Shown piece by piece: positions 1-28,448 of a DNA stretch of 40,652 nt. The notes beneath the pieces are model-generated. The model was not told where the DNA came from. It ran no database searches and worked only from the letters and a program-made list of their open reading frames with translations. Source of the DNA: a virus. Its lineage: Duplodnaviria > Heunggongvirae > Uroviricota > Caudoviricetes. Positions within the stretch are counted from its first letter, which is position 1. Every line of letters begins with the position of its first letter. The stretch lies in IMG/VR virus record IMGVR_UViG_2579778674_000010. One strand, 5' to 3'. A program made the translations under genes and the position numbers.

Positions 1-501
1 CAACGGCACCTGATACAGCCCTGTGGCCTCCAGATTATCCAGATAGAGATTCTGACCGTTACGCCACCAGTTATCCCCGCGATGAAAATCCGGCATCTCA
101 ATTCCCGCCAGATGGTAAGCGTCCCGGAACAGCGTGTAACAGTCCGTCACCCCGTGCTCAAAGCGCCGCCCGGTGAGATGCGGCACACAGCGGAATTTAT
201 GAATCGCCCCCCGGCAGACCAGCCACCACGGCAAATCACTCTGTACCTGCAGCCGCCGGTCGGCCTCACTCAGCCAGGGCTGACCACCGGGGTGGCTGTG
301 GACCAGCGCCACAATCTCACCCTGCATTTCTGCCTGCAGCCAGTCTTCCGGCGACATACGGAAATACGCCTCCGGCTCACCGGAGATATTCACGCAGGGA
401 AAATATCTTTCCTCCTCCGGCGTTCTCACCACGAAGCCGCACGACTCCGCTGGCGCACATCGCCGGGCGTGCGCCAGAATCGCTGATTCTGTCTCTGTCA
501 T
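1..501 (-). CDS. Tail assembly protein K-like (JAMM/MPN plus NlpC/P60), partial; runs off the left edge of the window
   Basis: Manual reverse-strand translation from ATG at 501..499 is open to position 1 (MTETESAILAHARRCAPAESCGFVVRT...). Contains a JAMM-like HSHP...SEADR motif and a DCYTLFRDAY Cys-containing region, as in lambda gpK. Sits directly downstream of the L gene. The track ORF 82..486(+) is antisense to it. Confidence 0.85.
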   Translation of the reverse strand, partial: MTETESAILAHARRCAPAESCGFVVRTPEEERYFPCVNISGEPEAYFRMSPEDWLQAEMQGEIVALVHSHPGGQPWLSEADRRLQVQSDLPWWLVCRGAIHKFRCVPHLTGRRFEHGVTDCYTLFRDAYHLAGIEMPDFHRGDNWWRNGQNLYLDNLEATGLYQVPL

Positions 502-5752: not shown

Positions 5753-6715
5753 TCAACTAATCGCCTCAGCACTGGCTTTTGCGATCACGGCAGCCGGGGA
5801 ATTTTTTTTTCTGGTTATCGTAGGTGCTTCATCTGCTGCGGTAATGCTCAATTGAACCTGGATAATGTCGCTATTACCCCCATCAGGCCATTCACCTGAC
5901 ACCTGAACCTTCGGGAAACTGAAAGTGTATGCCCCCTCTCCATTCGAAAGCGTGAAGCTGAACGGAACTGTTTCTCCAGTCAGTGTTTTACTCCAGATTT
6001 CCCACGCGGCTTTAGACCATGAAAGCGTCACCGTACCGGACGGTGTAAAAGTAGTCGGAATATTTGCTCCTGCATAAGGCGAGCCAGTCCCGATACAACG
6101 CTGTGTCTGGAGTTTGTTATCGAACTGAATATCAAAACTGTCGATACAAAAACCGTTACCTCCGGCAACACCATTCAGGCTTACTGCTGAAACCTCCTTA
6201 AACGAATAACGTAGCTTTCCTGCACTACCCACAGGTTCGCCTTTGATAAAATTCGTATCATCGGCCTTTGATTCCCAGTCCAGTCCGGCAAAGGTTACGG
6301 TCGCTGTAATATCGCCGTCGTTAGGGATCTGCATTTTCCATGAGCCAACCTGCGCTCCTCTGACGACAGAGGCAATTCCGACATCGGACGCATAGGTCGC
6401 CAGAGAAAATGTTATTCGCTCATTCCCCATTGTCAGAGAATCGCCTGACCATTCCGCGCCGAAACAGGATGCAAGAAAATCATCATGTTGACCCCAGCGA
6501 AATTTGGTACCAACATCACCGCCGACATCCACAGTGCCAGGCGTCGCCCCCTGAGCCATCCGGGAGCCACCAATCTCATTATTTTCGCCTTTATTCTGGG
6601 TGGGTTTTACTCCCCAGCTTGTGCGTTTTAATAAACTCCAGTCACCACTTGCTGGCGTAGTGCCTGCAACCGTCTCCCGGATAAATGCCGAGATAACCTT
6701 TGCACCTGAACTCAC
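5753..6715 (-). CDS. Major tail (tube) protein
   Basis: 320-aa ORF, Gly/Thr/Ser-rich beta-type composition, located just upstream of the chaperone and tape-measure genes. Assigned by position and composition, not by recalled sequence identity. Confidence 0.65.
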   Translation of the reverse strand: MSSGAKVISAFIRETVAGTTPASGDWSLLKRTSWGVKPTQNKGENNEIGGSRMAQGATPGTVDVGGDVGTKFRWGQHDDFLASCFGAEWSGDSLTMGNERITFSLATYASDVGIASVVRGAQVGSWKMQIPNDGDITATVTFAGLDWESKADDTNFIKGEPVGSAGKLRYSFKEVSAVSLNGVAGGNGFCIDSFDIQFDNKLQTQRCIGTGSPYAGANIPTTFTPSGTVTLSWSKAAWEIWSKTLTGETVPFSFTLSNGEGAYTFSFPKVQVSGEWPDGGNSDIIQVQLSITAADEAPTITRKKNSPAAVIAKASAEAIS

Positions 6716-6741: not shown

Positions 6742-7134
6742 CTAGAGCGCGCGATATGGAATTTGAAGATTAAGCTGGAACCAGCCATTCTTTTCGCCAA
6801 CGGCTATTGAGGAAACAGCCTGGTAACTGAGACGATCGTCATCCTGAAACTCAAACAGTTCCCGCAATTTATCGGCTGTCTCAGTAATGAGTTTTGAACC
6901 AGAACCTGCGGGGACAAATAACTGAATAATGATTATCCCCGTGCGATAAACAATCGGCCCCGCGCCAATTTCATTAACTCCAGCCTGCCCGGGAATATTA
7001 CTTAACCGCGCCCAGATTAACTTACCGGAAGGATCGAACGTTGGCGCGTTCGGATACAATACGTCTTTTCCATCAATAATCGTCTGTGCCGTCATTCTGG
7101 AAATAACCGTATTTCTGATTTCAGTAAACGTCAT
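6742..7134 (-). CDS. Small tail component (tail terminator or completion protein), start taken at MTFTEIR
   Basis: The track ORF 6742..7167 begins inside IS1; the first Met outside the element is at 7134 (MTFTEIRNTVISRM...). Position immediately upstream of the major tail gene. Confidence 0.5.
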   Translation of the reverse strand: MTFTEIRNTVISRMTAQTIIDGKDVLYPNAPTFDPSGKLIWARLSNIPGQAGVNEIGAGPIVYRTGIIIIQLFVPAGSGSKLITETADKLRELFEFQDDDRLSYQAVSSIAVGEKNGWFQLNLQIPYRAL

Positions 7135-7208
7135 TTGTAAGCCTGTAAAACACGGTAATGCTGCCAACTTACTGATTTAGTGTATGATGGTGATTTTAAG
7201 GTGCTTGC

Positions 7209-7484
7209 GTGGCTTCCATTTCCATCAGATGTCCTTCCTGCTCCGCTACTGAAGGCGTGGTGCGTAACGGCAAAAGCACTGCCGGACATCAGCGCTATCT
7301 CTGCTCTCACTGCCGTAAAACATGGCAACTGCAGTTCACTTACACCGCTTCTCAACCCGGTACGCACCAGAAAATCATTGATATGGCCATGAATGGCGTC
7401 GGATGTCGCGCCAGTGCACGCATTATGGGCGTTGGCCTCAACACGGTTTTACGTCACTTAAAAAACTCAGGCCGCAGTCGGTAA
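7209..7484 (+). CDS. insA: IS1 InsA
   Basis: 91-aa [61 protein letters not shown]..., recognised as IS1 InsA (zinc finger plus HTH). Confidence 0.95.
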
Positions 7485-7906
7485 CCTCGCGCATACAACC
7501 GGGCAGTGATGTGATTGTCTGCGCTGAAATGGACGAACAGTGGGGCTACGTCGGTGCTAAATCACGTCAGCGCTGGCTGTTTTACGCGTATGACAGGATA
7601 CGGAGGACGGTTGTGGCGCACGTCTTCGGTGAACGCACTCTGGCCACACTGGAGTGTCTTCTGAGCCTGCTGTCGGCCTTTGAGGTCGTGGTATGGATGA
7701 CGGATGGCTGGCCGCTGTATGAATCACGCCTGAAGGGAAAGCTGCACGTTATCAGCAAGCGTTACACTCAGCGCATTGAGCGACATAATCTGAATCTGAG
7801 ACAACATCTGGCAAGGCTGGGACGGAAGTCACTGTCGTTCTCAAAATCGGTGGAGCTGCATGACAAGGTCATCGGGCATTATCTGAACATAAAACACTAT
7901 CAGTAA
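7403..7906 (+). CDS. insB: IS1 InsB reading frame (made as InsAB' transposase by -1 frameshift)
   Basis: 167-aa ORF ...[41 protein letters not shown]... recognised as InsB. A6C slippery motif (aaaaaac) at 7460..7466 within the insA/insB overlap. Confidence 0.9.
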
Positions 7907-7921
7907 GTTGGAGTCATTACC

Positions 7922-7981
7922 TACATCTTCCTCAATCATCCCGGCAAATATTGACGGTTCTATATCCCATGCCTTTGCCAT
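7922..7981 (-). pseudogene. 5-prime fragment (20 codons) of a phage head-tail joining gene, cut by IS1
   Basis: ATG at 7981..7979 directly follows the TAA stop of the upstream gene (TAAATG packing). MAKAWDIEPSIFAGMIEEDV then reads straight into the IS1 right end at a codon boundary. No in-frame continuation on the far side of IS1. Confidence 0.5.
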
Positions 7982-8365
7982 TTACGCTCTCCTTAACTGG
8001 ATAGAGTAAACTGATGCGGAAGGATCTACACTTGCTGTAATTACCTCGTATCGTTGTAACTGCCTTGATACAGGATCATAAATCTCAATAATATGGTCGA
8101 CAGCTGGTTTATCCGTAACCTCGCATACCAGAGCGGTTAATTTAAGGTCACCATGCAAAATATTAATCCCATCAATTCTGCCCAGCTTATAACGTGTCAA
8201 CACGCCTCGCCCGGTATAGATTGCGGTGGATTCGCCGCCAGTTTCCGTCACAGGATCCCAGTGCCGGTGCGTAACGTAAGAACCAGAAAAATCACTCACG
8301 GCGTCCGCTAAATCCTCATCAAAAGCAGCGGCAACCTCTGACTGAATCTCTTCACGAAGCCCCAT
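7982..8365 (-). CDS. Head-tail joining protein (head closure/adaptor-like)
   Basis: 127-aa ORF between the connector-like gene and the IS1-disrupted gene; start overlaps the upstream stop. Assigned by position. Confidence 0.5.
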   Translation of the reverse strand: MGLREEIQSEVAAAFDEDLADAVSDFSGSYVTHRHWDPVTETGGESTAIYTGRGVLTRYKLGRIDGINILHGDLKLTALVCEVTDKPAVDHIIEIYDPVSRQLQRYEVITASVDPSASVYSIQLRRA

Positions 8366-8760
8366 TATCCCCCCCTCACAACCCTGACTTGTGAGCGACT
8401 AAGTCCGTACGGTTTCAGCAGTGCTATCGCAAGCTGTAAATCGGGTTCAAGCAATGCAGTGCTGTTTGCTGGCAACTCAGAAAATGATTTCGATACACTG
8501 ACCCCGTCAGCCGACACGGCTTTACTGATAACAACGCCAGAATCATTTTTCTGCTGAAACAACTTACCGAATGAGGCAATTCTGGCTGCATATGCTCCCG
8601 CAAGTTTTACCTCTTCCGGAATACGGGATGGGTTAATTTTCAGGTTGAAGCCATTAAGCCAGGCATTAGCCATTAAAACAGCTTTATTTTTAGCGTTCTC
8701 ACTCGTCCAGGCGTTCCCAAACGCATTATCAACGTCATCACAGGTCACGTAAGTGATCAT
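8365..8760 (-). CDS. Head-tail connector protein (gp6-like)
   Basis: 131-aa ORF downstream of the capsid gene, in the position and size range of gp6-like connector proteins. Confidence 0.5.
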   Translation of the reverse strand: MITYVTCDDVDNAFGNAWTSENAKNKAVLMANAWLNGFNLKINPSRIPEEVKLAGAYAARIASFGKLFQQKNDSGVVISKAVSADGVSVSKSFSELPANSTALLEPDLQLAIALLKPYGLSRSQVRVVRGG

Positions 8761-15974: not shown

Positions 15975-16226
15975 TTAGTCCTGATTTTTATCCACCCTGA
16001 GTAGTTCGCGCAGAGCAAAGGCATCCCCTTTTCTGGCAAGCTTAAACAATGCCGCTCGTAACTCGGCTTCACCTTTCGCTCTGCCCTTACGGATGGCCGC
16101 ATAAAAATCTGTCATTGCTTCCCGATTTTCTTTCAGTCGGTTCAGATCAACATCCAGAACGTCAGCGATTTGTTGTGCAGTCATCCGGCACGCTGCCAGA
16201 GACTCGACTTTCGAATACGGAATCAT
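15975..16226 (-). CDS. Small hypothetical protein, possibly HTH-containing
   Basis: 83-aa ORF directly upstream of the terminase small subunit. Start uncertain; it overlaps the end of the preceding ORF. Confidence 0.35.
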   Translation of the reverse strand: MIPYSKVESLAACRMTAQQIADVLDVDLNRLKENREAMTDFYAAIRKGRAKGEAELRAALFKLARKGDAFALRELLRVDKNQD

Positions 16227-17094
16227 TTGTCACCCCCATTGATATGCAGGGTGTCTTCTTCCTGTATTTTTCGTGAAGGATTTTTACTGCAGCGTTGTTC
16301 CAGGTGACCTGATGGTGAATGCGTTTATGGCTGGCACCCATCAGTGAGATTTTTACGCACGACGGCGCATACATGACGGAGTAAAAACTTTTAACGTAGG
16401 TTCCGGAATCCAGATACAGCTCGGTCATTCCGCCGCTGTTTTTCTGCGTCTGTTTCTGCCCTAACTGGACAGCACCGATCGTCATAAACAATTCACCACA
16501 GCGACCGAGATTCGTGTACGTATTCACATCCTCGTTAATGCGCCCCATGAATGAGAACGGTCGATCAACCGAACAGATAAAGCTGTTCATTGCCTTGCGT
16601 TTCACCCACGAAGCATGGCCGCCATTGTCACCAAGAAAATCCCCGCCCTGCGACATAGCGATGGAAAGAGCAGGTATTGATTCGTAGTACGCCAGCATTT
16701 CAGAAAGGATCGCATCCAGTTTCCTTATCGGAAAATAGGCCTGGTCATAGTTGCGATCCACCCGAAACTGGAACTCGTGATAATCATCATCGAGCTGAAT
16801 GAAGTATTTACACCCGACCAGTTTTGCCAGGTCGAAACAGGCATTACGGGCGTAAAAAATTGAGCGGCGGTCACAGAAATTATCGGCTTCGTCAAAACGA
16901 CTGGCGATATCGGCTTTGGAAAACACCAGCACCTGTTCACCAAATTCAGCCATGTACTGATTCCGTGTCTTATCTTCATCATCAACAACGATAAAAATTT
17001 TCCCGGTATAGCCAGCACGACGCAACGTCCGGTAAGTCAGAACTTTGTCCGGTCGCCCGTGAGTCAGAATAAAGGCGCAAAAATCATCACGCAT
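16162..17094 (-). CDS. Hypothetical phage protein, possibly nucleotide-sugar-transferase-like
   Basis: Start taken at MRDDFCAF (ATG 17094), giving an 8-nt overlap with the ParB-like gene. Contains FIVVDDEDK and IQLDDDYHEF acidic motifs reminiscent of DxD glycosyltransferases. Function not established. Confidence 0.45.
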   Translation of the reverse strand: MRDDFCAFILTHGRPDKVLTYRTLRRAGYTGKIFIVVDDEDKTRNQYMAEFGEQVLVFSKADIASRFDEADNFCDRRSIFYARNACFDLAKLVGCKYFIQLDDDYHEFQFRVDRNYDQAYFPIRKLDAILSEMLAYYESIPALSIAMSQGGDFLGDNGGHASWVKRKAMNSFICSVDRPFSFMGRINEDVNTYTNLGRCGELFMTIGAVQLGQKQTQKNSGGMTELYLDSGTYVKSFYSVMYAPSCVKISLMGASHKRIHHQVTWNNAAVKILHEKYRKKTPCISMGVTNDSVFESRVSGSVPDDCTTNR

Positions 17095-17878
17095 ATTCCT
17101 CCTCCTCACCACCATGCATGATCTCCACCATGCGCTGCGTCATCCGGACAAATCCATTTTCAATAGCCTGCTGATAATCAATGATCACCAGCGCCGACTC
17201 CTCGAAAAAACACTGAATTTCAGAGGGGGCGTGAGCGTAATAGTCCGCAATTCTGCTGAAATTAAACACCGTGTGACGTTCTGCCGCACACAGGAGGAAT
17301 TCCTCAATATCAGGCTCAAGGGACGCCGAACGTATCCGGCTGATCAGCTCCTGAGTTTTCGTATCGTCGTACAGTTCACTGATATCCGGTTTACCGCCCG
17401 ACGGCTCATAAACAGGCGTATCAATTTTCGTCGTATACGGCTCCTCCTCATTTCCTGTACCGGGCAAAACATCCGTCAACAGTTCATCAATTTCTGTCGG
17501 GATGAAGCCTGTCAGGGAGACATCAAAATCAGCATTGATTAGGTCCGACAGCTCCATCCGCAACAGATCTTCATCCCAGCCAGCATTCATCGGCAGGCGA
17601 TTATCTGCCAGGCGGTACGCCTTTTTCTGCTCATCCGTCAGGCCAGACAGAACAATGACCGGAACAGAATCCATTTTGAGCATTTCAGCCGCCATAACAC
17701 GACCGTGACCCGCAATAATTTCGCCCTTTTCGTCAATCAGCACCGGATTAGTCCAGCCGAATTGCTTAATACTTTCTACCAGTTGTGCCACCTGCTCAGG
17801 GCTGTGCGTCCTGGCGTTGTGCGCATACGGTGACAATTCTTGTAATGGGCGATAGACTATCTTTAATTTCTCGCTCAT
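17087..17878 (-). CDS. ParB-like nuclease domain protein
   Basis: 263-aa ORF with the ParB N-terminal domain signature (...NPVLIDEKGEIIAGHGRVMAA...). Lies upstream of the packaging genes. Probably the counterpart of the K-12 Rac gene ynaK. Confidence 0.75.
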   Translation of the reverse strand: MSEKLKIVYRPLQELSPYAHNARTHSPEQVAQLVESIKQFGWTNPVLIDEKGEIIAGHGRVMAAEMLKMDSVPVIVLSGLTDEQKKAYRLADNRLPMNAGWDEDLLRMELSDLINADFDVSLTGFIPTEIDELLTDVLPGTGNEEEPYTTKIDTPVYEPSGGKPDISELYDDTKTQELISRIRSASLEPDIEEFLLCAAERHTVFNFSRIADYYAHAPSEIQCFFEESALVIIDYQQAIENGFVRMTQRMVEIMHGGEEEEYA

Positions 17879-17892
17879 ACAGCCTTGCTTTA

Positions 17893-17929
17893 TGAATAAA
17901 ACGCACCCCAGCAGCCAGTGCTACTGGGG
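17893..17929 (-). terminator. Hairpin plus U-rich tract downstream of trkG
   Basis: Plus ccccag-(12 nt)-ctgggg at 17906..17929; minus-strand RNA has the hairpin followed by UGCGUUUUAUU. The loop is long, so strength is uncertain. Confidence 0.35.
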
Positions 17930-18015
17930 ACGGAGGGGTTGCTGGTAAAGTTAGGTATTGGATCAATGAGTGAGTCAACATAATATTAAACTCACAATTA
18001 TAAATCAGCCATATA

Positions 18016-19473
18016 TTAGGAGCGCCAAAAAAAACCTGAAAACAATATAATAACAGGATAAATTTCAAGGCGACCAAGAATCATAGCTATGCACATTAAA
18101 CATTTTGCAATGTCATTAAGCACTCCGAATGACGATGCAGTAGCCCCAAAACCTAATCCCATATTATTAATACATGCAGCCACTGTTGCAAATGATGTAA
18201 GAAAATCATATCCCATACCATTTAACACCAGTATAAAAAACACCGTGAAGAGAGTATAAAGAAAAAAGAAACTCCATACAGACCTCATTACACGATCTGT
18301 AACTATCTTCCCTCCTACATTTACACTCAACAACGCTCTGGGATGAGAAAGCTGATTTATCTCGTGTTTGCTTTGTTTGAAAAGTATAAGAAATCGAAGT
18401 GACTTAATTCCACCACAAGTTGAACCTATACATCCCCCAAAGAAACTTGACAACAGCAAAAACACTATCGTGTGCGTGGGCCAGTTTGCATAATCCTGCG
18501 TAGCTAAACCATTATCAGTGAGCATGGAGCTGGCAAGAAAAAACGAATGAATAAAACTTCCATGCAAGTCATACATACCTATATGCCAGACCTGGAAAGA
18601 GGTAACAATGATCACCCCTAAGGCTATTAACAGAAAGAAACGAAGTTCAATATCTCTGATTAAAGGTTTTATCGTTTTTCTGCTAATAACAATATACCAA
18701 AGAGTGAAGTTGAAAGCCGATAGCAGGGAAAAAGAACCAGCCACCAGCTCAACCAAATAGTTATTAAAATATCCGATACTCTCGCTATGAGTTGAGAAAC
18801 CACCAAGCGAAACTGTGGAAATCCCGTGACAAATAGCATCAAACAAAGGCATTCCTGCAAGTCTATAACAGACAATACAAGCAATACCTAATAAAGAATA
18901 AGTTATCCACAGTGTCCGTGACGTATCGGCCAGGCGGGGAGTGAGTTTGTCATCCTTAAATGGCCCCGGCATTTCTGACTGATAAAGCTTTGCACCACCA
19001 ATACCCAATAATGGCAATACTGCAACCGCCAGAACAATAACTCCTAAACCACCTATAAAATTTAACTGTGACCGATAGTACAAATATGCCCGAGGTAATG
19101 AACTAACATCATCAATTACAGTTGCTCCTGTTGTTGTTATTCCAGAAACCCCTTCAAACAGAGCATCAATGAACGTTAAATTAAGTTCTGAGTCAATCCA
19201 TAAAGGGAATGCACTAATAACAGAAAACAAAATCCAAAACATTACAATTATAATAAACCCATCACGGGTACGTAATTGAATGCCAGATTTCTTAGTTGTA
19301 TACCACGCTCCGCCACCAATGCAAAAAAATATAACGAAAGTTATAAAGAAAACGAACAGGCTTTTTTCTTTATAAAACAATGCTACAACCATTGGTGGCA
19401 ACATTGAAAGACTATAGAGCCAAACCAGGAACCCACACATATGAGTAACAACTCTTACATGAGATGTATTCAT
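18016..19473 (-). CDS. trkG: TrkG potassium uptake protein (TrkH family), prophage cargo
   Basis: Polytopic membrane protein. Sequence from MNTSHVRVVTHMCGFLVWLYSLSMLPP onward is recognised as the Rac-prophage TrkG of E. coli K-12; the track ORF has 6 extra N-terminal codons. Confidence 0.9.
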   Translation of the reverse strand: MNTSHVRVVTHMCGFLVWLYSLSMLPPMVVALFYKEKSLFVFFITFVIFFCIGGGAWYTTKKSGIQLRTRDGFIIIVMFWILFSVISAFPLWIDSELNLTFIDALFEGVSGITTTGATVIDDVSSLPRAYLYYRSQLNFIGGLGVIVLAVAVLPLLGIGGAKLYQSEMPGPFKDDKLTPRLADTSRTLWITYSLLGIACIVCYRLAGMPLFDAICHGISTVSLGGFSTHSESIGYFNNYLVELVAGSFSLLSAFNFTLWYIVISRKTIKPLIRDIELRFFLLIALGVIIVTSFQVWHIGMYDLHGSFIHSFFLASSMLTDNGLATQDYANWPTHTIVFLLLSSFFGGCIGSTCGGIKSLRFLILFKQSKHEINQLSHPRALLSVNVGGKIVTDRVMRSVWSFFFLYTLFTVFFILVLNGMGYDFLTSFATVAACINNMGLGFGATASSFGVLNDIAKCLMCIAMILGRLEIYPVIILFSGFFWRS

Positions 19474-19610
19474 ATCTAAATATTCTTTCAATTATAACCA
19501 CCTTGCTGCAATATTATGATTATACTGTATAAAATTTAACTCCTCTTAGATCTTACTTCACTGTTCCTTATGAAACAATCATCAAAATGAATCATATTGT
19601 AGTTAAGATT

Positions 19611-20075
19611 TTACTTTAAACACTGCTCGGTTATGTATTGCTGAGCACCTTCAAGTTGGGCCTGCATCATTACCAGTCGTTCCCGGAGGGTGAAATAATC
19701 CCGTTCAGCGGTGTCTGCCAGTCGGGGGGAGGCTGCATTATCCACGCCGGAGGCGGTGGTGGCTTCACGCACTGACTGACAGACTGCTTTGATGTGCAAC
19801 CGACGACGACCAGCGACAACATCATCACGCAGAGCATCATTTTCAGCTTTCGCATCAGCTAACTCCTTCGTGTATTTTGCATCGAGCGCAGCAACATCAC
19901 GCTGACGCATCTGCATGTCAGTAATTGCCGCGTTCGCCAGCTTCAGTTCTCTGGCATTTTTGTCGCGCTGGGCTTTGTAGGTAATGGCGTTATCACGGTA
20001 ATGATTAACAGCCCATGACAGGCAGACGACGATGCAGATAACCAGAGCGGAGATAATCGCGGTTACTCTGCTCAT
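19611..20075 (-). CDS. rzpR: Rz i-spanin
   Basis: 154-aa ORF with an N-terminal transmembrane segment and coiled-coil periplasmic domain; start overlaps the endolysin stop by 4 nt. Confidence 0.85.
19670..19855 (-). CDS. rzoR: Rz1 o-spanin lipoprotein, embedded in Rz in the +1 frame
   Basis: 61-aa ORF with a lipobox (LVVVGC) and a proline-rich mature region ([18 protein letters not shown]), lying entirely inside Rz. Confidence 0.8.
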
Positions 20076-25374: not shown

Positions 25375-27700
<2,326 letters not shown>

Positions 27701-28001
27701 TTTAATTACCTTATATATCCAAACTCTTAATTTTCTCTTTTTTACCATAGGATTAATCCAAAATAAAGACCTTGTTGACTAAACCCTCATGTACAAAATG
27801 CACACTTACTCAAAAGGATCTGGAGGCAATCTCGACCTCCATGATTTAGTTCCTAGGGATAAGCAGAAATCTAGCACTGGATTAAAATTTAAAAATAATA
27901 ATCAATAGGTTATAATGGTTTTTATTCGCATCCATGGGATCTGCTGCTGCCCGCATGATGTTGGATGCGACGGCGCTGGCACGACCTCACCCGGTGAAAC
28001 G

Positions 28002-28448
28002 ATGAAACGCGAAAGGGTTGTTCTTCGGGAAGGTGCAGTTGGACTTTCAATCGATGACGTTGCAAAAGAGGCTGGCGTCAGTAAGGCAACGGTAATGTAC
28101 GATCATAAGTCAAAGCAAGATTTGCTCAGCGATCTCATCAGTCGCCTTATGCCAGTAGAGGAGGAACGTGTTCAGCAAGCGATAGCGGAAAGTAATAATA
28201 CCCCACATCCCGCACTCTATGGGCGAATTATTTCAGCCAGTAATGCTCTCAGTCATACTGAGAGAGCAGTAGTGCTGGCGGTCAGCGAATCGTTAACTAA
28301 CGATACGAATATCAGGGACACCATGCGTTCCTGCACAAACAAAGATTTGGATGAGATAAAAAGAGGACCAAAACCAGACGTTGCCGTCCTGGTATATTTG
28401 GCGTTATCTGGTATCTACTGCCAAGAATTTTTTGATTTTTACAAATGA
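28002..28448 (+). CDS. TetR/AcrR-like HTH protein, possibly truncated
   Basis: LSIDDVAKEAGVSKATVMYDHKSKQDLL resembles the TetR N-terminal HTH signature. Only about 148 aa from ATG 28002, shorter than typical TetR proteins. Divergent from the adjacent three-gene operon. The Cys-rich track extension from 27915 was not adopted. Confidence 0.4.
   Translation: MKRERVVLREGAVGLSIDDVAKEAGVSKATVMYDHKSKQDLLSDLISRLMPVEEERVQQAIAESNNTPHPALYGRIISASNALSHTERAVVLAVSESLTNDTNIRDTMRSCTNKDLDEIKRGPKPDVAVLVYLALSGIYCQEFFDFYK

Follow-up and report, generated by a model that had tools for sequence, protein, structure and literature searches.

An IS1-associated deletion in the tail completion gene of a Rac-type prophage of Escherichia coli FCH1

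A complete copy of IS1 stands among the head–tail joining genes of a prophage of E. coli FCH1, and the 9-bp direct target-site duplication by which a simple insertion of an IS1 family element is recognised is absent. This raises the question of how the element came to lie where it does and what the phage lost in the process.

The window analysed here (the whole stretch of DNA, 40,652 nucleotides) is the reverse complement of the first 40,652 bases of AYKD01000013.1 (GCA_000511545.1). AYKD01 is the assembly of E. coli FCH1 (PMC6455142), a CTX-M-1 isolate from human faeces that was obtained on a farm for a study covering isolates from pigs and pig farmers, and its genome was assembled with SOAPdenovo from Illumina 500-bp inserts (PMC4270446); the reads are filed under PRJNA224245. 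The prophage is a Rac-type lambdoid phage integrated next to ttcA, with its late genes on the minus strand. The assignment was made via the annotation of TUM11353, which is ~99.98% identical to positions 20000–40652 of the window (7 substitutions) and displays the ttcA/intR site, xisR, recET, racR-ydaS/T, kilR, sieB, trkG and ydaY. The early genes annotated there are intR, which ttcA adjoins, xisR, ralR, recT, recE, racC, kilR, sieB, racR and ydaS/T/U/V; the annotation further lists a Q-like antiterminator followed by holin, endolysin and Rz, then trkG, and the genes for packaging, head, neck and tail as far as stfR/tfaR. PHROG matches bear out the Q-like protein and the lysis genes. The contig ends within a K-like tail gene, with the distal tail genes (the rest of K, I, J, stf, tfa) lying off it.

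IS1 and the gene it interrupts

The element has the following features:

7154–7921, plus strand (transposase genes): complete IS1, 768 bp, the sole IS1 copy within the window
7154–7176, plus strand: left terminal inverted repeat of IS1, GGTAATGCTGCCAACTTACTGAT, with 20 of 23 positions identical to the right repeat
7899–7921, minus strand: right terminal inverted repeat of IS1, GGTAATGACTCCAACTTACTGAT, with the same 20/23 match to the left repeat
7209–7484, plus strand: insA, 91 amino acids
7460–7466, plus strand: A6C programmed −1 frameshift site of IS1, context TTAAAAAACTC
7209–7906, plus strand: insAB′ transposase frame, 232 amino acids after the −1 shift, uninterrupted, ending at 7906

The initial annotation had described a complete IS1 of 768 bp with both inverted repeats and with insA and insB joined at an A6C motif, and both the repeats and the open 232-aa InsAB′ frame bear this out. 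The called InsAB′ product carries matches to the Pfam families Zn_ribbon_InsA, HTH_Tnp_IS1 and DDE_Tnp_IS1 (PF03811, PF12759 and PF03400 reported; precomputed for the source contig). In its length (~768 bp), imperfect repeats of ~23 bp, A6C-joined InsAB′ and high identity to known copies the element is a member of the IS1 family. It is a variant diverged by ~8%, displaying 91.7% identity to an IS1A copy. In 4951 of 5426 complete E. coli genomes there is a copy that covers 80% or more of the element; among the IS1 copies in these genomes the best match reaches 99.5% over the full length, and an exact copy of the FCH1 sequence was found in none of the 5426. Judged by its sequence, the element is functional-looking.

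The 9-bp stretches that flank IS1 differ, as had been observed from the outset (GTAAAACAC at 7145–7153 versus TACATCTTC at 7922–7930). The target-site duplication is missing because of a 298-bp deletion; its absence bears on how the insertion came about and leaves the classification of the element untouched. The flanks comprise two remnants of a single gene and the genes that surround it:

7922–7981, minus strand: 5′ remnant of the tail completion gene (Neck1 / HK97 gp10-like), codons 1–20, MAKAWDIEPSIFAGMIEEDV, 100% identity to the intact 126-aa protein
7131–7153, minus strand: 3′ remnant of the tail completion gene, VLQAYK plus stop, 23 nt
7841–7981, minus strand: 46-aa junction open reading frame, 20 phage codons followed by 26 codons from the IS1 end, which marks the allele
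6742–7134, minus strand: tail terminator gene, 130 amino acids, intact (PF13554, 4e-8; PHROG 179, 3e-41; 100% identity to SE11)
7982–8365, minus strand: head closure Hc1 gene, 127 amino acids, intact (PHROG 161, 1.5e-28; 100% identity to SE11)
8365–8760, minus strand: head–tail adaptor Ad1 gene, intact (PHROG 493, 7e-49)
5753–6715, minus strand: tail tube gene, intact (PF18906, 2e-31; full-length SE11 match)

The stop codon of the Hc1 gene abuts the next ATG as TAAATG, and exactly 20 codons follow this start (7981–7922 on the minus strand) before the IS1 end is reached, just as the initial annotation had it. On the other side, the ATG of the tail terminator gene lies at 7134, with IS1 upstream and 19 nt between the two. 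Here the earlier reading was correct in placing the next gene close to IS1, but it had found no frame continuing the interrupted gene, of which VLQAYK and a stop codon are in fact preserved, the stop overlapping the tail terminator start as ATGA.

The extent of the loss emerges from the comparison that had been proposed at the start, namely with related prophages lacking IS1: in each intact relative inspected (AH65, SE11 and TUM11353), the flanks are exactly 298 bp further apart. The spacing was also surveyed with a 1733-nt query in which the two flanks were joined and IS1 was removed. This query matched 762 of the 5426 complete E. coli genomes, 707 of which cover at least 80% of it, and among the matches listed it spans 2031 bp, or 298 bp extra, in 29 of 30 E. 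coli genomes and likewise in 10 of 10 phage-collection records. The 298-bp segment falls wholly within one annotated 381-bp gene encoding 126 amino acids (60 + 298 + 23 = 381 nt), so that 78% of the gene is lost and 83 nt of remnants survive (20 and 6 codons, plus the stop). In TUM11353 the intact gene occupies NZ_CP134380.1 2490749–2491129, and the 126-aa protein carries the accession WP_001029815.1. The flanks are collinear and are separated in the uninterrupted locus, the break is positioned exactly at the IS end, and the junctions contain no extra or ambiguous bases, except that 2 nt (CC) may overlap at the right IS1 end.

At the level of aligned sequences, an IS1-associated deletion of one small structural gene is proven. 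The initial annotation had suggested that most of one or more small genes had been removed; the deletion stands, and the number of genes comes down to one. With just 20 of its 126 codons left at the 5′ end and a further 6 at the 3′ end, the tail completion gene is null.

Identity of the lost gene

The intact 126-aa protein of the relatives matches PHROG 169, 'tail completion or Neck1', with an E-value of 1.3e-54, and PGAP labels it 'HK97 gp10 family'. The PHROG assignments of its neighbours as Hc1 and tail terminator agree with the earlier placement of the lost gene between the head-closure and tail-terminator genes. The gene order, which runs adaptor, head closure, lost gene, terminator, tube, parallels both HK97 gp6-gp7-gp10-gp11-gp12 and lambda FII-Z-U-V, and HK97 gp10 and lambda Z, which belong to PHROG 5 and PHROG 27, respectively, carry the same label as PHROG 169.

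Direct sequence comparisons are less explicit. The intact protein has no match in Pfam, in NCBIfam or among the sequences of solved structures. Its close homologues match PF04883 (HK97-gp10_like) in 21 of 26 cases, weakly, with a best value of 0.0014. An exhaustive profile search yielded 6446 family representatives, of which 122 were sampled for a Pfam test; 21 of these match PF04883, with a best value of 5e-8, and no other family was matched in the sample. In an hhalign comparison with HK97 gp10 the alignment is confined to a PVDTGRFR-type motif of 26–28 residues, and a profile comparison of the lost protein with lambda gpZ gave no match.

Structure prediction adds to this picture. A first model, built from an alignment of 26 sequences, had a pLDDT of 51 and was discarded as poor, and the AlphaFold model obtained with the 122-sequence alignment from the exhaustive profile search has a pLDDT of 96.2. 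When compared to BFVD, the latter matches an HK97 gp10 family protein (Xp15; E 1e-6, TM 0.77/0.80) and a tail completion protein (SSP002; E 1.4e-4, TM 0.77). Among solved structures there is a single plausible match, to a chain of 9mu2, which contains the SaPI1/80alpha neck with its tail completion protein, and this match is weak (E 1.1, TM 0.54/0.62).

Considering (i) the membership in PHROG 169, (ii) the position between the head closure and tail terminator genes, and (iii) the fold matches of the model, we conclude that the product of the lost gene belongs, as a divergent member, to the class of tail completion proteins (TCPs). The known proteins of this class (HK97 gp10, lambda gpZ, SPP1 gp16.1 and 80alpha gp51) have the position between head closure and tail terminator in common, and the lost protein resembles them in its small size, its conserved P-V-D-T-G-R motif, the shared PHROG label and its predicted gp10-family fold. 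It differs from them as a divergent branch, which forms PHROG 169 as opposed to PHROG 5 or PHROG 27 and on its own falls below the Pfam threshold.

Public assemblies also contain 129-aa variants of this protein. These were considered as further IS fusions and rejected, as they are frameshift variants with no IS junctions.

Age and origin of the lesion

IS1 and the deletion together constitute the sole structural difference between the FCH1 window and TUM11353, in which the tail completion gene is intact; over 39.9 kb the two otherwise display 15 substitutions and one compensated 1-nt indel pair. Twenty late-region proteins of SE11, from minor tail protein L to Rz, are present in the window at full length, gapless and with 96–100% identity, and the SE11 K protein aligns without gaps up to the contig end. 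Because TUM11353 is near-identical with the gene intact, and because the remaining late genes of the window have kept their full length, the lesion is, by this comparison, recent and private to FCH1. In a megablast search with IS1 and its flanks, none of the 5426 complete E. coli genomes displayed the FCH1 junctions, and the GTDB species-representative genomes contain no exact match to the left junction. The 46-aa junction reading frame comes from a single contig, and its cluster has no further member among ~15 billion proteins.

Adjacent deletions are made by IS1 through intramolecular transposition. The account that we favour, and consider likely as a whole, is that an IS1 insertion was followed by an adjacent deletion of 298 bp, leaving a null tail completion gene and a phage that produces few or no infectious particles. 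IS1 would have transposed into the 381-bp gene at the site of one of today's junctions and generated a 9-bp duplication there. One end of the element would then have attacked a nearby site on the same molecule, upon which the intervening 298 bp and the second copy of the duplication would have been lost, and IS1 would have been left intact between non-matching flanks. The features of IS1-mediated adjacent deletions that we find here are the intact IS, a deletion edge exactly at the IS terminus, the lack of a duplication, and flanks that were ancestrally separated. The FCH1 case does not differ in kind from the known ones; it is small and confined to one gene.

Adjacent deletion is the usual route to IS copies without duplications, and in the long-term evolution experiment all IS-associated deletions were traced to a prior insertion (PMC11708052). 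In FCH1 the order of events, insertion and then deletion, is one that we infer rather than read from a precursor, because a precursor allele, in which the full gene would carry IS1 at one or the other junction flanked by a 9-bp duplication, was found in none of the 5426 complete E. coli genomes.

The observed product, a single IS1 with flanks from two sites in one gene, is also what would be obtained if two IS1 copies in the same orientation had been present at both junctions and RecA-dependent recombination had deleted one copy together with the 298 bp and the inner duplications. Independent insertion of IS1 into the tail completion gene does occur, as 118C_1_fosA3 (NZ_AP045737.1) carries an IS1A in it at a third position, flanked by a clean 9-bp duplication, TGCATAAGG. 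This insertion and that of FCH1 have the gene, the prophage type and the IS family in common, whereas the IS1 subtypes are 91.7% identical, the 118C_1_fosA3 site is located inside the segment deleted from FCH1, and the event is a simple insertion without a deletion. The recombination route requires, however, that two insertions occurred within 300 bp and in the same orientation in a prophage that is otherwise near TUM11353, and neither single insertion was found in the 5426 complete genomes, which makes this an unlikely origin of the FCH1 allele.

The lack of an intermediate among these genomes also fits a one-step event, in which IS1 entered the gene at a gap or double-strand break, with simultaneous loss of the 298 bp and without ever producing a duplication. 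New IS insertions that lack a duplication and coincide with deletions have been described, and insertion at DNA breaks was proposed for them, but in the long-term evolution experiment it was IS150, and not IS1, that took part in the deletions associated with IS elements (PMC11708052). As the final sequence of the FCH1 locus fits the one-step and the two-step course alike, it lends the former no advantage, and we regard a one-step origin as improbable.

The deletion could, finally, be unreal. Were the true locus IS1–298 bp–IS1, or some other arrangement, with IS1 collapsed during assembly, the gene would still be disrupted but nothing would have been deleted. The genome was assembled with SOAPdenovo from short reads with a 500-bp insert size (PMC4270446), an IS1 inside such a short-read contig is unusual, and the FCH1 element is identical to no copy in the 5426 genomes, as the consensus of several copies might be. 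Against this, the window contains zero Ns, and the junctions are clean, fall in the same gene, are collinear and have sequence with 99.9% identity to TUM11353 on both sides. Furthermore, a repeat longer than the insert size normally breaks a contig and is not bridged, and two insertions in one 381-bp gene would again be required. We therefore hold an artefact to be very improbable. The short-read assembly and the lack of an exact match to a known copy do mean that the interior of the IS1 could be a consensus of several copies.

Adjacent deletion thus ranks well above recombination, one-step insertion and assembly collapse, because each of these three calls either for two insertions in a small gene or for something out of the ordinary. 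Adjacent deletion by IS1 and the decay of prophages both belong to textbook knowledge, and the present case is an ordinary and well-understood one.

Consequences for the phage

All studied phages with a defective TCP are non-viable (PMC11099176), but the defects take different forms. Mutants of lambda gpZ and of Mu gpG produce normal-looking, mostly non-infectious particles (PMC11099176, PMC11784142). In SPP1 without gp16.1, the joining of tails to heads is reduced and ~96% of the particles are non-infectious, while ~4% infect (PMC11099176, PMC11784142); the non-infectivity stems from DNA ejection outside the cell (PMC11099176; PMC11784142; bioRxiv 10.1101/2024.12.10.627806). In mutants of P2 gpS and TP901-1 ORF40, heads and tails remain unjoined (PMC11099176, PMC11784142). 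The TCP of 80alpha is located inside the neck, where it touches the DNA end and the tape measure protein (PMC11099176; PMC11784142; bioRxiv 10.1101/2024.12.10.627806).

By analogy, the prediction that the FCH1 prophage has lost the production of infectious particles is well supported. The prophage should retain excision, replication, cell lysis and the production of heads and tails, and without its TCP either the joining of tails to heads would be impaired or the DNA would be misdelivered, with few or no infectious particles as the outcome. The initial annotation had considered the prophage 'probably unable to assemble virions'. The loss of infectious particles that this implies is indeed what we predict, but a block in assembly is too specific a claim because TCP-null phenotypes vary between phages: such a block would be just one possible phenotype, and 'cannot make infectious virions' is better supported by the precedents than 'cannot assemble virions'.

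In the mouse gut, KingRac, a related full-length Rac-type prophage, forms particles and establishes lysogeny in new hosts (PMC6731689), and as it does so, an intact ancestor of the FCH1 prophage could plausibly have been active as well. The ON4706xx 'phage' records were considered as evidence of viable intact relatives and set aside, as they are located in clinical isolate genomes according to the paper that names them. Many Rac-type prophages are decayed, such as that of AH65 with its frameshifted capsid and truncated tape measure genes; with the distal tail genes of FCH1 off the contig and some SPP1 particles infecting without gp16.1 (PMC11099176), the lesion might be of little consequence, either because the prophage was already non-functional or because the missing protein is supplied from elsewhere or dispensable. 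This we doubt. Every late gene that the window shows has its full length, at the identities to SE11 given above, the gene content of the early region equals that of TUM11353, in which nothing is flagged as a pseudogene, and non-viability is common to all the TCP-defective phages studied (PMC11099176). In addition, TCPs are too divergent for easy cross-complementation, as the lost protein, HK97 gp10 and lambda Z are spread over three PHROGs.

The cryptic Rac prophage of E. coli K-12 occupies the same ttcA/intR site and has racR, ydaS/T/U/V, kilR, sieB, recET, ralR, xisR, trkG and ydaY in common with the FCH1 prophage, and both have been inactivated by IS elements and deletions. K-12 Rac, from which most of the late region has been lost, is far more reduced, whereas the FCH1 copy is nearly full length with a single small lesion in the window. 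An apparently complete Rac-type prophage of ~46 kb in a human ESBL E. coli isolate has in this way been struck by one precise, recent and inactivating lesion, of a type that a scoring of prophage intactness by gene content would probably miss. The lesion is, moreover, a natural TCP null allele in a lambdoid phage for which near-identical intact counterparts exist (TUM11353, CH423/425/458), and null and intact forms together offer a means of studying what TCPs do, a matter still under debate. Beyond correct annotation, its significance is small.

A more far-reaching reading, to which we give very little credence, is that the knockout is not neutral decay but a 'taming' lesion that was selected for. 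In that event, excision, replication, lysis and the production of heads and tails would be kept, and the particles would be dead ends that adsorb to cells and waste their DNA outside them. The host would keep the cargo of the prophage (trkG, a SIR2/deaminase cassette, recET, superinfection exclusion) while competitors received no phage from it, and the particles that it released might act as decoys or killers; the independent IS1A of 118C_1_fosA3 would hint at a recurrent targeting of the tail completion gene.

The tail terminator gene retains a 19-nt upstream region with a weak AGG, and any translational coupling to the gene upstream is gone. A scan of both strands of IS1 found no intrinsic terminator. 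As the element is predicted to contain none and the prophage encodes a Q-like antiterminator, we would not expect a strong polarity of IS1 on the downstream tail genes, and any polarity that it does exert on them would need Rho.

Insertion sequences in the neck and tail module of other strains

The tail completion gene of a second strain, E. coli 118C_1_fosA3 (NZ_AP045737.1), carries an independent IS1A insertion (positions 1774-2541 of the extracted locus L003), flanked by a clean 9-bp duplication, TGCATAAGG. Its site differs from the IS1 junctions of the FCH1 prophage and falls within the segment that FCH1 has lost. The neck/tail segment of E. coli USDA-ARS-USMARC-50748 (NZ_CP104117.1, 2688431-2693058), where the match is divided into four pieces over 4.6 kb, is broken up by IS2 and IS3 family elements and is a further case of decay of this module by insertion sequences.

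Decay by other routes and related records

Decay is also seen outside the neck. In the Rac-type prophage of E. coli AH65 (locus L001), the neck genes are intact, the capsid gene is frameshifted, and truncated, fused versions stand in place of the tape measure and tail fibre genes. Several public assemblies encode variants of the tail completion protein of 128-129 amino acids (proteins P0069, P0079, P0083, P0100 and P0107), one cluster of which has 21 members. These variants share an out-of-frame C-terminus that is entered at differing points, and they are frameshifts, either genuine or the product of sequencing errors.

Phage-collection records named ‘Escherichia phage vB_EcoS-...’ (ON470581-ON470616) match the window at about 99%. 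Their source is a preprint that describes phages found within the genomes of clinical isolates producing carbapenemases, and some are only 20-23 kb long. The records appear to be prophage sequences and should therefore not count as evidence of a viable phage.

At the start of the window, the K-like C40 peptidase tail gene is cut by the contig end, with 167 of its 247 codons present (window 1-501). Compared with the near-identical prophage of E. coli TUM11353, positions 133-358 contain five clustered substitutions and a compensated pair of 1-nt indels; this cluster may reflect a repeat that also occurs in other lambdoid prophages and at which the assembly broke.

Non-structural genes and a cargo cassette

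Non-structural genes lie amid the late region, with the lysis genes on one side and the terminase genes on the other. A cargo cassette separates the replication genes from the Q/nin region.

Genes of the two regions
Window 16162-19491, late region:
trkG, potassium transporter
ParB/Srx-domain protein
310-aa protein, with a match to a PHROG of glucosyltransferase annotation (Pfam TAGT)
Window 25375-28448, cargo cassette:
SIR2-domain protein, 264 aa (PADLOC ThsA-type SIR2, E 9e-32)
HAM1-like non-canonical purine NTP pyrophosphatase, 184 aa
Adenosine-deaminase-like amidohydrolase, 342 aa (deaminase part of PADLOC CARF_ADA, E 3e-36)
TetR regulator, following these, divergently transcribed

For the four cargo-cassette proteins, the PADLOC models yielded no full-length match. 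The SIR2/HAM1-like/deaminase cassette appears to be a candidate anti-phage module of the nucleotide-depletion kind.
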